DNA from: Octopus sinensis
Taxonomy: Eukaryota
Length of the DNA: 64,000 bases
NCBI RefSeq assembly: GCF_006345805.1
Contig: NC_042998.1
Coordinates: forward strand, 50,220,001 to 50,284,000
Reading direction: 5' to 3'
The notes beneath the pieces were generated by a model. It ran no database searches. It was not told where the DNA came from and saw nothing but the letters and a program-made list of their open reading frames with translations. The translations under genes were made by a program, and so were the position numbers. How positions within the stretch are numbered: the stretch's first letter is position 1; every line of letters starts with the position of its first letter. Below are positions 2,739-57,050 of the stretch, piece by piece.

Positions 2739-2865
2739 CTTTGATGCAAGTCTGATGAAGCGTCTCTCTTATGTCTAAATCATCAAATATTACATAAGTT
2801 TTCACTTCGAATTTGTGCGTAAACTGTAGAGTTGGTGCAGAAACAATTGTAACGAATCATTAAAG
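2739..2865 (+). ncRNA. Degenerate type I hammerhead ribozyme-like motif with long stem II
   Basis: CTGATGA at 2752-2758 and GAAA at 2840-2843, palindromic stem III ACAATTGT, GUA triplet. Stem I is GT/AC plus CTTTGATG/CATTAAAG. The stem II closing pair is an A-A mismatch. Confidence 0.5.
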
Positions 2866-3119
2866 AAGCGTTAAAGAATTTTCTTTGACTTTTTATTATT
2901 TGGATTATTTACATTTCGCCAAATCCAGTCTACGACGTGATTGCCGTGTAACATGGAATTTCTACACCTAAAGAATTCCGGCTTTGGCCTGGAATCCCAT
3001 AAAGCTGATAACCCATTATTCGGGTTGAGAGCTTCTCTGGAAATACTCTAAATTTACACCATACTAGGACCTTATATATATATATATATATATATATATA
3101 TATATATCTTTTTATCGTT

Positions 3120-3757
3120 TAACTTTTACTTGCTTCTTGGACGGTGGTCATGCTAAGGTAGCACCTTGAAGGGTTTAGTCAAACACATCAACTCCATTAC
3201 TTATTTTTTTATTCTATCTGACTCACTTTGCTGGACGCTAATTTACAAGGAAGTAAATAAATCAATACCGGTTGTCAAAACTTGGTGAAGAAAATACAAG
3301 CACAAACACACACACCCATGTGCACATACATATATATAGAATATATATACATATAGAAATATACAAAGAAATATATATATATACATATTCTTTTATTCTT
3401 TTATTTGTTTCAGTCATTTGACTGCGGCGGCCACACGGGAGCAACGCCTTTAGTCGAATAGTACGTATTCTATCGGTATCTTTTGCCGAACCGCTAAGTT
3501 ACAGGGACGTAAACACACCAGTATAGGTTGTCAGCGATATTGTGGGGACAAACACAAACATACATACACACACATACACAAACATACATACAGACACACA
3601 TATACATATATACAACGGGCTTCTTTCAGTTTCCGTCTACCAAATTCACTCACAAGGCTTTGGTCGGCACAAGGCTATAGTAGAAGACACTTGCCCAGGG
3701 ACTGAAACCGAAACCATGTGGTTGGTTAGTAAGTTACTTACCACACAGCCACTCCTA
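3120..3757 (-). mobile_element. SINE family B: near-full copy (3388-3757) plus an adjacent older 3' half (3120-3340)
   Basis: Reverse complement of the GGAGTGGCTGTGTGGTAAG head, the GGGCAAGTGTCTTCTACTATAGCC core, an internal CA/TA microsatellite and the GCCGCAGTCAAATGACTGAAAC tail. Confidence 0.85.
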
Positions 3758-5525
3758 CGTTTCTCTCTCTCTCTCTCTCTCTCTTTCTGTATATATATAT
3801 ATATATATATATATATATATATATATATATATATATATGGATGTATGTACATAAAGGCGTTTGCGTGTGTATGTGTTTCTGAGTCTGTGAATAATAGTAC
3901 ATGAGTGAGAGAGAGAGAGAGAGAGAGAGAGAGAGAGCGAGAAAGAGAATGGTGCAGAATTGCAGGAACAAAGACAAGATCAAAATCACAGCAAGCAGAC
4001 AAACTAACAGACGGACAGACAGTCGGATAGATTATCAGATAGATACACAGATGGATAGACAGATGAACTCAAAGACAGACAGATAGTGAACCAAACTGCT
4101 GTGTGGAGTGTTTTAGTACTATTTCCTCGATATAAATGCTTTCTAAAGCTGCAAGAGAAGAGATTACATGATACAGTGTATGTACATAGAACTATTGATT
4201 TCTTTTGTCTCGGCAAAGGGACAAATTTTGCAGGTGAGAATGTGATGACGATTGAATTGTCGTTCTTCTATTATTTATTGCATATTTTATGGAGTATGTA
4301 GCAATGAAATCTAAATTCAAACCGGCTGATATTTCAATCACCAGTGAAGTAATGTGGTTTATTTTTATGTATTGTACTAAAGTATGAAACGTACTGTTCC
4401 TGGGCTGATGCAGTGATTGATGGCCGACAGTACTGACCACCGTTCTCCTCTTCATAAGAATATTATATAAAAATGTGTGTGTGTGTGTGTGTGTGTGTGA
4501 GAGTGTGTGTGTGTGTGCGTTTGCATGTTTGTTACATCATCGCATTGCTTTTCACATTATGTATAGATATATGTCTATATACACAAACACAACCATATAG
4601 ATATACACACATGCATAAAACATACATATATACGCGCTCATATGTATATATATATATATATATATATATATATATATATGCATATGTTTTATTTTATTTA
4701 TTAATATATATATATATATATATATATATATATGCATATGTTTTATTTTATTTATTAATATATATATATATATATATATATATATATATATATATATATA
4801 TATGTCATTTACTTGTTTCTGTCATTCAGTTTCCCTCTGACAAATCCGCTGACAATGCTTTGGCTGCCCCGCGGCTATAGTAAGAGACACTTGCCTGAGG
4901 TGCCACGTGATGGAACTATAGGACTGAACTCGCCTGCGCCTATATATAATATATATATATATATATATAATATATATATATATATATATATATATAAAGG
5001 AGAAGAAGAAGAAGAAGAAGAAGAAGAAGAAATGAGAGTATTGTTAGTGTCATGTCAATGATGTTGGCAATGATAATAGCTTTTGATGATGTTGATGGCT
5101 GTTCTTATTGTTAATTAGGTTTTATGTCAACCCTAATCGAACAGGTCAATGATCAATGGCAGTTCCAGTCTTGACCTCCTCATAGACAATAGTGTGTGAT
5201 TTCAGGGAGATTTACCCGTTATTTCAAATTTACACAGTAAGTATTTTTGTTTGAAGCGGAAATCGAAATCGAAACTTCAAAAACTAATTTCTGTGCTGTT
5301 ATTGACTGTTTAATACAAGAGGAAATCTCATTGCCGTGAATAGTCAACATTTAGGAAGATGATTCCACCGAAGGAGGTCCTGTGATCGCAAACTATCACA
5401 CTCACTGATGAAAATACAAAATCCTTAGAATTGCACACTGCCAAAAAAAAAGGACAAAAAGCTGGTGCACCAGTATGTCCTTGGTGTGGTAACAGAAACT
5501 AACCAAACTAAACGCATTTTTCATA

Positions 5526-6035
5526 TCTATATATATAAAACTGTAGTTGTGTGAGTGCCTGTCCCCTTCGATTTAGATTCCTAACTACTCCCACATTTTG
5601 CGGTGCAGTTTAACCAAATTCGGGTATCTTATAGTCGTGATTAATATCAAGCACGTCTGGCTATTAGCGCGCGTCTACGATGAGTCTACGATTAAAAAAA
5701 TAATTTAACATCATTTTTTATTCCATTTTAATGCATAATTTTTCGTGTGTCGATGGCGGTGGAGTTGGCGTCCATGGTCACATCTGCACCTGTTTGCTTC
5801 CTCTTCTTCCCTCCGTCGTGAAGCTGTGGGGAAGGGAGAGTAAGGAAATCAACGTCGTAAAGCGTTGTCAAGGAGACCAGCGTTCTTTTAGAACAACGAC
5901 TTCATGGCTTGAAGACACCAAAACAGAAATGGCTAAGAAAGCCCGAATTGGCATCTATAAGGGAAGTAACTCTCTAAAAATGCTTATATAGTTATTTCCC
6001 TTACAAACCCGAGCAACGCTGGGCGATACTGCTAG
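5526..6035 (+). mobile_element. Non-autonomous Helitron
   Basis: Starts TCTATATATATAAAA and ends with a GC-rich hairpin CCCGAGCAACGCTGGG about 10 nt before CTAG. It lies between A (5525) and T (6036) with no TSD. Confidence 0.85.
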
Positions 6036-54436: not shown

Positions 54437-54667
54437 GGCGTCGAGCTGGCAGAAATGTTAGCACGCCGGGCGAAATGCTTAGCGGTATTTCGTCTGCCGC
54501 TACGTTCTGAGTTCAAATTCCGCTGAGGTCGACTTTGCCTTTCATCCTTTCGGGGTCGATTAAATAAGTACCAGTTACACACTGGGGTCTATATAATCGA
54601 CTTAATCCATTTGTCTGTCCTTGTTTGTCCTCTCTGTGTTTAGCCCCTTGTGGGTAGTAAAGAAATA
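54437..54667 (+). mobile_element. SINE family A, young full-length long-tail copy with 17-bp TSD
   Basis: TSD GGTATAAGTCATCTCAG at 54420-54436 and 54668-54684. The core GTCGACTTTGCCTTTCATCCTTTCGGGGTCGAT..AATAAGTACCAG resembles the Deu/Nin SINE domain (recalled). Confidence 0.95.
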
Positions 54668-54821
54668 GGTATAAGTCATCTCAGCCACAGCTATAAGATC
54701 ATCATCAAATAATACCTAGATGACATAATACACTGCCGGGTCTGAAAATCGAACTCACGATCAAAGTACGATTGAAAACCTGAGAATCTAACCTCTCGGC
54801 CGCTATCATTACAGTGTAATA

Positions 54822-56265
54822 ATAATATCAGTATAGATGTAATATTAATGTAAATGCCATATCAATATAAATGTGATATTAATTGTAGATTTCATATCAC
54901 TGTGAATGTCATTATAATATTTCTGTGATATCGATGTATATGTGATTCCAATGTAAATGTGCTGTCAATACGTGATATCAATGTTAATGCATTATCAGTA
55001 TAAATGGTACACCAGTCTACTTACCATATCAGCGTATACGTAACTTCACTCTAAATGTGATGTCAAAATAAGTGTGATATCAATGGAAATGTGATATCAG
55101 TATGTATGCAAAATTAATGGAGATGTAATATCTGTGTAAATGTATCTGTGATCTCAATATAAATGTGATATCGTTGTGAATGAGATATCAGTATAAATGT
55201 AATATCATTACAAAACTGATATCAACGAAAATGTGATCCCAATATAAATAAAGTCGACGTACATGTGATTTCTATGTAATCTTAATATAAAATTGATATC
55301 CATGTGTTATCAATACGAATGAGACACCATCATAGCAAGAACGAAAGGCGGTAAGCTGGCAGAAACGTTAGCACGCCGGGCGAAATGCTTAGGGGTATTT
55401 CGTATGTCTTTATGTTCTGAGTTCAAATTCCGCCGAGGTCGACTTTGCCTTTCATACTTTCGGGGTCGATTAATTGAGTACGAGTTGCGTACTGGGGTTT
55501 ATCCAATCGACTTGTCCCCTCCCCCAAAATTCCAGGCCTTGTGCCTAGAGTAGAAAAGAATATAATATGATTGTGAATGAGATATCTATATAAATGTAAA
55601 ATCATTACAAAACTGATATCAATGAAATTGTGATCCCAATATAGATAAATTCAACGTACATGTGATATCTATGTAATCTTAATATAAAATTGATATGTGT
55701 TACCAATGCAAATGAGACACCGAAATTCGGCAAGCTGGCAGAATTGTTAGCGCGCTGTACAAAATGTTTAACGGCATCTCTTCTGGTTTTATGCTCTGAG
55801 TCTTAACTCTGTCGCGGTCGACTTTGCCTTTCATACTTTCGGGGTCGATTAAATAAGTACCAGCTGAGCATTGCGGTCAATGTAATTGACTACCCCTCAC
55901 CCTAACCAAAATAATATCTGCCCTGTTGCCTGTAGAAGAACGGAAAGGATCGTGACAGTAATGAAAAAGTAGGTATGATATCCCACTTACAATAGTATCT
56001 ATGTGAATTTATGTCCAATGGAGGTTTAATATCATTATATAAATGATATCTGTATAGCACTACTAACAATGAAAATGTGATGCCAAAGTATAATACCAAT
56101 GTATTATACCAAAGTATAAGACCAGTAGTGCGAATGTAAAAGTGAAATCTGCGTAATTAATATCAATTCATATGATATCAACGTAAGAGTGATAGCAATG
56201 CAAATGTGATATCACGTTGTGATATCAATATGATATAGATATATGAAAAGTATCGAAATATAAAT
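54822..56265. repeat. Decayed 17-bp satellite (about ATATCAATGTAAATGTG) interrupted by two family A SINEs
   Basis: Consecutive units such as ATATCAGTATAGATGTA, ATATTAATGTAAATGCC, ATATCAATATAAATGTG; SINEs at 55346-55562 and 55728-55900. Confidence 0.75.
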
Positions 56266-57050
56266 GGGATGGCCATCTTATGTGTTCACAGAATAGTAAC
56301 GCAGCAACAACCGGATGCTTTCAAGATATCTCTGACTCGGCAGTTATCTTAATAAAACCGGAACAAGAGAGAGGATGGAACACCACTCGATGATGAGGAC
56401 GGCGATGATGATGATGATGACGACAACGACAACAATGATGATGAGGGGGATGAGGAGGAGGAGGAGGGGTAGTAGTAGCAGCTGAAAGATGATGCGAAAG
56501 TTGCTGTTTAAATCTTTATCCTATATCTGTTTTTTCGAACATAAGCACATACGTGTAACATAGACACACACACAAACACACACATATATGTACATATATA
56601 TGTGTGTATATATATAATACACACATTCATACATACATACATACATACATATAATATATATATATATATATATATATATATATATATAGTGAGAGAAAGA
56701 AGTGGGGAGAGAAAAATACAGTTATCTCAAATATTATGCGGCATAAATTTTTGAATTGTTAATCTTATGTTTGCCTCTAGGGGGCTGTGTTACAATACCA
56801 GATGATAATCGGGAACAACCCCATAGCAGAAGGCGAGGTAATCTCAGGAATCAAGAATTTTCCAAAGCTGATGATATAGCATTAAGGAAAAGGACAGGTT
56901 TATTGTCTGGAGAAAAAAGAAAAAGGTAGTTGGTGACATGTGTTTCTACGTCAATAGGCATCATCAGCGCGTTTATTGTCTTAACATATTTCAAGCAGCC
57001 ATGGGACGTAGGTCTTAACAAAAAATGTAAAACACATTTATGGTCCCGGT

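Follow-up and report, generated by a model that had tools for sequence, protein, structure and literature searches.

Type I hammerhead ribozymes in seven unrelated repeat families of Octopus sinensis: putative Penelope-like element ends and retrozyme-like units

Introduction

What kind of element carries the hammerhead ribozyme motifs scattered through a 64,000-nucleotide stretch of the Octopus sinensis genome (RefSeq assembly GCF_006345805.1, contig NC_042998.1, positions 50,220,001 to 50,284,000 of the forward strand; hereafter the window, to which coordinates refer unless a locus is named)? An earlier note on this DNA had proposed a population of unrelated, ribozyme-carrying mini-elements that colonise microsatellites and are mobilised by Penelope-like elements (PLEs). 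We found all seven CUGANGA…GAAA…UH motifs in type I order where that note had placed them, three of them on the minus strand (note positions 10097, 43843 and 56932). We consider it highly probable that these hammerheads belong to seven unrelated repeat families and are placed close to the 3' end in each; four of the families would be the ends of coding PLEs, and three are non-coding units likely mobilised in trans. PLE hammerheads, (TA)n targeting and animal retrozymes have all been published before, and the seven families are new members of these kinds.

Seven hammerheads in the window

The sites were named by core position and strand (2752+, 10152−, 41061+, 43871−, 44292+, 49277+ and 56967−). 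The window is rich in simple repeats (36% GC), and the host genome comprises 2.72 Gb in 13,516 contigs. A three-stem descriptor (stem I of at least 2 bp, stem II of at least 3 and stem III of at least 2) gave four hits in the window, whereas 100 local dinucleotide shuffles averaged 0.12 hits and none of them reached four; the reversed sequence gave no hit. Comparison with such shuffles had been set beforehand as a test able to refute the earlier proposal, and it came out in its favour on a wider scale as well: 50 stretches, each of 10 kb and fixed in position in advance (C3–G8 and U3–A8 cores; stems of at least 3, 3 and 2), contained 15 hits versus a mean of 4.8 in 15 shuffles (maximum 9).

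These counts bear on one alternative, namely that AT-rich repeat DNA has produced the motifs by chance. Loose descriptors do yield such matches, as seen from the 4.8 hits per 500 kb of shuffled sequence and from a shuffle mean of 1.6 in the window once stem I is no longer required, and two families lack covariation between copies (see below). Nevertheless, real sequence exceeds the shuffles in both samples, and each of the seven motifs recurs at the same place in its repeat family, where PLE hammerheads are known to lie, so that we regard chance as extremely improbable. It is contradicted for six families; 2752 is the least certain of the seven as a working ribozyme, owing to an A·A mismatch at the stem II base that is also found in the family majority. 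The fourth descriptor hit, 15376−, was rejected as a chance match, since its core was not conserved in 11 aligned homologues; it lies in an old low-copy repeat (15340–15380, minus strand; 19 matches) whose other copies have no hammerhead core. Two U3–A8 candidates (16817+ and 25160−) and one long candidate (6108−) have weak stems.

The features of the seven sites are as follows.

2712..3072, plus: putative 3' end of an old Hydra-type PLE (family 2752), then (TA)17
Core 2752–2758, cleavage triplet 2851, plus: 2752 hammerhead with long stem II, 8-nt palindromic stem III and weak stem I
9987..10237, minus: main arm of a non-coding unit of about 340 nt (family 10152), ending at the short 3' site beside (TA)n
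10110–10157, minus: 10152 hammerhead
10238..10295, plus: family 10152, inverted arm that includes the tail (long 3' site)
40868..40989, minus: family 41061, inverted arm that reaches the long 3' site beside (TA)n
40986..41320, plus: family 41061 (young, non-coding, 426-nt unit), main arm, short 3' site beside (TA)16
Core 41061, triplet 41120, plus: 41061 hammerhead, stem III palindrome ACCGGT
43732..43946, minus: putative 3' end of a Neptune-type PLE (family 43871), terminating in (TA)6
43841–43875, minus: 43871 minimal hammerhead with an extra A before stem II and the palindrome ACGT
44031..44462, plus: putative 3' end of an old PLE (family 44292), with a decayed GIY-YIG-type C-terminus at about 44031–44170
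44287–44326, plus: 44292 minimal hammerhead, palindrome ATAT
49277..49337, plus: 61-nt fragment of a putative young Hydra-type PLE end (family 49277) within a 1.6-kb TA tract
56714..57043, minus: old decayed copy of a non-coding unit of about 400 nt (family 56967)
Core 56967, triplet 56935, minus: 56967 hammerhead, stem I lost

Since each window copy has one ribozyme at most, and several are without a stem, the copies, all short (61–450 nt), are likely dead relics.

Family structure and genome-wide density

Each site belongs to a multi-copy family, with first-look candidates numbering 992 (2752), 747 (10152), 1476 (41061), 3318 (43871), 413 (44292), 640 (49277) and 491 (56967). Profile searches with nhmmer found no cross-family homology better than E 0.34 among the seven, in agreement with the earlier view that the carriers are unrelated. 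For each family we scored 40 candidates and fetched 25–30 loci (L-numbers below, such as L221), which are the best-scoring copies and not a random sample. Stems that are missing from window copies return in the family majorities, as in 10152 (stems of 5, 5 and 5 bp) and 49277 (a 6-bp stem I), and the majorities of all families except 2752 form complete three-stem type I hammerheads. The stems differ between families around a common core, yet still pair. Palindromic stem III sequences, likewise noted earlier, are present in 41061, 43871, 44292 and 2752. Core columns exceed their flanks in conservation in 7/7 families (for example 0.94 vs 0.88 and 0.98 vs 0.91), with a margin that is barely present in the two young families. 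The 49277 copy in the window begins at the core and so is missing the 5' strand of stem I; this copy (49277–49315) and its family have a U·U pair at the stem II base and a stem III of 4 bp, with which folding as a monomer would be possible. Besides its hammerhead, family 2752 has a second CUGANGA half-core with a hairpin, without GAAA, about 100 nt from the family 3' end (2969–2996), which is decayed in the window copy and present in the family majority.

The suggested density of about one motif per 10 kb applies to this window if relics are counted; genome-wide, well-formed motifs occur at about one per 50 kb, or some 55,000 per genome by rough extrapolation. Profile models of the seven families made 10 matches in the same 500 kb, and none of these overlaps any of the 15 descriptor hits by position; many more hammerhead families therefore exist in this genome. 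If this holds, well-formed hammerheads here would number tens of thousands and fall into dozens of families.

Four families as ends of coding Penelope-like elements

By the open reading frames (ORFs) that they join, families 2752, 43871, 44292 and 49277 appear to be 5'-truncated 3' ends of protein-coding PLEs. The links were drawn from motifs and from tblastn with local PLE proteins, and clades were assigned by motif rather than by tree. Reverse transcriptase (RT) was seen directly for 49277 and 44292 only. In 49277, the ribozyme and tail lead into an ATG-initiated ORF with RWR and DKT motifs (L221/L279), so that the end is repeated before the ORF as a pseudo-LTR, an arrangement that was not seen in the fetched loci of the other three families. 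Locus L282 has the order RT, endonuclease, untranslated region (UTR) and ribozyme, and the ORFs of this family share about 90% identity, with open frames of up to 688 aa. All Hydra-type motifs were found in 49277 (RWK-like, DKT, CxxC and CxH in the endonuclease, no CCHH), and they match by eye the Hydra proteins printed in the supplement of PMC8557442.

For 43871, two loci (L278 and L274) can be aligned over 1.65 kb, from an endonuclease whose linker is CX4CxxC, located 1.3–1.6 kb upstream of the ribozyme end, through to the ribozyme, and the family is Neptune-type by motif. Similarly, L441 and L449 align over 1.4 kb in family 2752, from an endonuclease about 1.9 kb upstream of the end into the UTR leading to the ribozyme; by its endonuclease motifs only, this family would be Hydra-type. 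In 44292, a VY…YIG domain ends about 120 nt before the core in five copies, and the family is possibly Nematis-type, as read by eye. PLE ORF fragments beside L004, L077, L085, L089 and L251 were judged separate insertions and not family bodies.

This evidence speaks to a second alternative, in which all seven families would be one class of mini-elements, retrozymes without a coding parent. The shortness of every window copy and the head-to-tail non-coding units of three families favour it, but four families run into PLE-type ORFs in longer copies at independent loci, and the 44292 copy in the window itself retains a decayed endonuclease end. We therefore think it very unlikely. The PLE connection drawn earlier is thus borne out, whereas the term mini-element suits 41061, 10152 and 56967 and not the four families that we read as truncated PLE ends.

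Autonomous PLEs, whose presence had been predicted, are found in the genome as intact frames of 784 aa, linked to a U3–A8 hammerhead, and as intact Hydra-type frames of 690–730 aa, including a second Hydra-type family with many of 720–730 aa. Hammerheads with U3–A8 cores were noted at L188 (3960–4010, minus strand), L316 (2530 and 7863) and L325 (9394). The L188 hammerhead is part of a young family of Neptune type in which many 784-aa ORFs are intact; one copy of this family (L204) is without the ribozyme segment of the 3' end. Selenocysteine recoding was considered because L179 has a TGA in frame at a linker cysteine, and was rejected, as most of the 118 best copies have no stop. The ribozyme-tipped PLE arrangement is very common in this genome.

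Three non-coding families of head-to-tail units

The remaining families, 41061, 10152 and 56967, are non-coding head-to-tail units of 340–426 nt, each with one type I hammerhead, and are retrozyme-like. For 41061, a 426-nt circle accounts for all 25 loci, which have no other upstream sequence in common; more than one unit is present in 16/25, the longest being 999 nt, and copies reach 2.3 units (L056/L285). Their 3' ends fall at two sites 64 nt apart, followed by (TA)n in 24/25. Folded as a circle, the unit is strongly self-paired (z −7.5 vs shuffles), its stem I is long, and the core is intact in 21/25 copies. In L285 (2425–2850), one frame of the unit is open for 141 codons; it is likely not conserved, because unit length varies between 426 and 429 among copies. 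Family 10152 has a 340-nt unit with two 3' end sites about 45 nt apart, and 56967 a unit of about 400 nt with scattered 3' ends. A retrozyme-like family was also present in contigs of four sequencing runs, which cannot show strand, ends or circles.

We think it likely that the three families are mobilised in trans by a PLE protein. More specifically, 41061 may be a young family still spreading as circular ribozyme RNA, inserted by PLE protein through two start sites at (TA)n, with intact Hydra and Neptune elements as helpers, a proposal that we hold tentatively and with somewhat less than even confidence. In a competing account, tandem arrays in the genome are transcribed into linear head-to-tail RNA from which the three families are copied, without any circle and with the ribozyme as a passenger from a PLE end. 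Genomic copies of up to 2.3 units could indeed be transcribed as linear multimers, non-autonomous head-to-tail PLE derivatives have been described (PMC8557442), and ribozyme cleavage was dispensable in vitro for one PLE (PMC11167929). On the other hand, three PLE ends of like length gave fold z values of only −0.6 to −1.3, compared with that of the 426-nt circle, and both the long stem I and the largely intact core of 41061 are at odds with a passenger. We consider this account possible but rather doubtful. If the circular reading of 41061 is true, the family would give direct genomic evidence on the movement of animal retrozymes, in a system open to reconstitution in vitro.

Insertion at (TA)n tracts

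The association with dinucleotide tracts proposed earlier holds for six of the seven families. A (TA)4 run begins no more than 25 nt from the aligned 3' end in 14/24 copies of 2752, 10/25 of 10152, 13/25 of 41061, 13/25 of 44292, 19/25 of 49277 and 24/30 of 43871, the last count being biased upward because the query itself held a TA run. These proportions (40–80%) compare with 2.6% of random positions; 56967 (2/25) is the exception.

Many loci also contain inverted matches (11/25 for 2752, 5/30 for 43871, 15/25 for 44292 and 16/25 for 49277). Among 20 distinct insertions of 49277, all 12 that were two-armed combined one arm with the tail and one without, counts for which the search may have favoured stretches with two copies; in 7/12 the junction between the arms is no more than 14 nt upstream of the core and coincides with the stem I palindrome AGCT. 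For 41061, 13/17 two-armed insertions paired a long with a short arm, one had two long arms, and three had an arm ending elsewhere. Both two-armed window copies (10152 and 41061) consist of one long and one short arm. This pattern would fit the two start sites and both-strand extension reported for an anole PLE (PMC11167929), as well as the inverted copies and one-sided tail described in PMC8557442.

We propose that the PLE endonuclease would cut both strands of a (TA)n tract and that reverse transcription would start at two RNA sites about 45–70 nt apart, one per DNA end. Most cDNAs would stop early and leave the ribozyme-bearing end alone, while two cDNAs could join head to head, in 49277 mostly at the stem I AGCT palindrome. 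In the non-coding families, the hammerhead would cut multimeric transcripts into units (as dimers where stem III is palindromic), which may then circularise and be copied in trans more than once around.

Evidence weighed against the proposal

Several results weigh against the reading of all seven families as ribozyme-bearing PLE ends and trans-mobilised units. As for the ribozymes, only 3/7 window copies (41061, 43871 and 10152) pass the standard descriptor. The 44292 copy, with 2 bp of stem II left, passes only if stem II of at least 2 is allowed, that of 56967, whose stem I was lost by decay, only without the stem I requirement, and those of 2752 and 49277 at no setting. Rfam gave no hammerhead match at the gathering score in the whole window. 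Its HH9 model made one weak match (E 0.21) at 10112–10155, a search over 43740–44470 returned no hammerhead, and a scan of the window at a looser E-value was dominated by microsatellite-like miRNA models. Genome-wide, RF00163 made 7 matches, in other families, among the 74 candidates scored of about 266,000, which is not a genome count. Rfam thus misses these hammerheads in this genome.

Stem covariation, whose absence the earlier note had named as able to refute its proposal, was assessed in two of the seven families, 10152 (24/25 copies aligned) and 44292 (22/25), and did not rise above shuffle level (147/500 and 413/500), although the stems pair in 90.8% and 81.1% of cases, respectively, far above slid controls. 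This lack would be expected if dead copies decay neutrally from one master; between families, stems differ entirely yet pair.

With respect to the proteins, the 44292 endonuclease had no tblastn match to the PLE queries used, so that its identity rests on motifs read by eye. Pfam detected no relevant family in 4/5 ORF pieces; the exception was the intact 784-aa protein from a different family, in which RVT_1 scored above and GIY-YIG below the cut-off.

For the non-coding units, only 7/25 loci of 10152 and 3/25 copies of 56967 exceed one unit, and single old units of these families fold only mildly better than doublet shuffles (z −2.7 and −2.1). Family 56967 shows no association with TA, none of the non-coding families was paired with a helper family, and ribozyme cleavage was not needed for insertion of the anole PLE in vitro (PMC11167929).

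Relation to known systems

Minimal hammerheads in PLE pseudo-LTRs, mostly in solo truncated copies and in many families, were described by Cervera and de la Peña 2014 (PMC4209133), and their cleavage as dimers is reviewed in PMC6765202. The octopus motifs resemble them in type I order, in a palindromic minimal stem III and in the many divergent families per genome, as well as in the extra nucleotide before stem II (here 43871 and 44292), the predominance of solo copies from truncated PLEs, close opposite-strand pairs and the U3–A8 core variant (here elsewhere in the genome, L188). They differ in host group, in the 4-bp stem III with an 8-nt loop and the U·U pair of 49277, and in the stem II region of about 85 nt in 2752. 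A U·U pair at the stem II base is also present in axolotl HHR_Amex2 (PMC7229834).

Contrary to the suggestion that such elements were undescribed in cephalopods, the supplement of Craig et al. 2021 (PMC8557442) lists Hydra-1_Obim, an octopus PLE that carries a hammerhead and prefers (TA)n, and for the giant squid 235 Rfam hammerhead-1 loci were counted (PMC6962438). The Hydra-1_Obim ribozyme printed in that supplement is none of the seven. Hydra-clade PLEs share with 49277 and 2752 a hammerhead near the 3' end and (TA)n targeting, and further RW(K/R) and DKT motifs, CxxC and CxH around the endonuclease E and N, and no CCHH; unlike those of PMC8557442, the Hydra-type elements here have long 3' UTRs (1–1.9 kb) with abundant simple repeats. 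Families 43871 and 44292 resemble Neptune and Nematis PLEs in their C-terminal endonuclease, cysteine linker (CX4CxxC in 43871, shorter in 44292), CCHH residues and (TA)n ends.

Animal retrozymes, including those of mussel, were reported by Cervera and de la Peña 2020 (PMC7229834), and a PLE origin has been proposed for them (bioRxiv 10.64898/2026.07.22.740005). The non-LTR retrozymes of these two sources match 41061, 10152 and 56967 as low-GC, non-coding head-to-tail units with one type I hammerhead, and 41061 is also like retrozymes in self-pairing as a circle, which is weak for single old units of 10152 and 56967. In contrast, the 426 nt of 41061 is at the upper end of published sizes, and instead of long arrays there are dispersed copies of 1–2.3 units, which have inverted arms and fixed 3' ends of PLE type at (TA)n. 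For the PAc PLE of the green anole, two reverse-transcription start sites, an optional tail and extension of both target strands were reported (PMC11167929), whereas in octopus the two-start-site pattern is known from its genomic signature alone, and it also occurs in non-coding families.

The main text of the bioRxiv paper makes no mention of octopus or molluscs, although the species table in its supplement could bear on novelty, and that of an octopus repeat annotation (PMC13282606) describes recently active Penelope-like families with 0 mentions of ribozymes. We found no paper describing octopus retrozymes or these families in a search that left most subscription journals outside. The findings extend PLE hammerheads and retrozyme-like units to an octopus genome and are in this respect of modest importance. 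The two-start-site insertions of 41061 lend support to the unproven proposal that animal retrozymes are mobilised by PLE protein, and this family and the intact PLEs are concrete candidates for substrate and helper.

Other features of the window

An insertion with short terminal inverted repeats (CAGTG…) at 57050–57610 appears to split the 56967 copy, and a further piece of the unit, seen by eye and not picked up by BLAST, seems to be present at 57610–57700. A SINE-like repeat of 184–185 nt forms tandem arrays of 2.7 and 3 copies at 25654–26143 and 51026–51574; its single copy at 43512–43732 abuts the 43871 element, and L003 has the same juxtaposition elsewhere in the genome. Finally, a 24-nt minisatellite with 23.8 copies and 97% match occupies 59710–60279.

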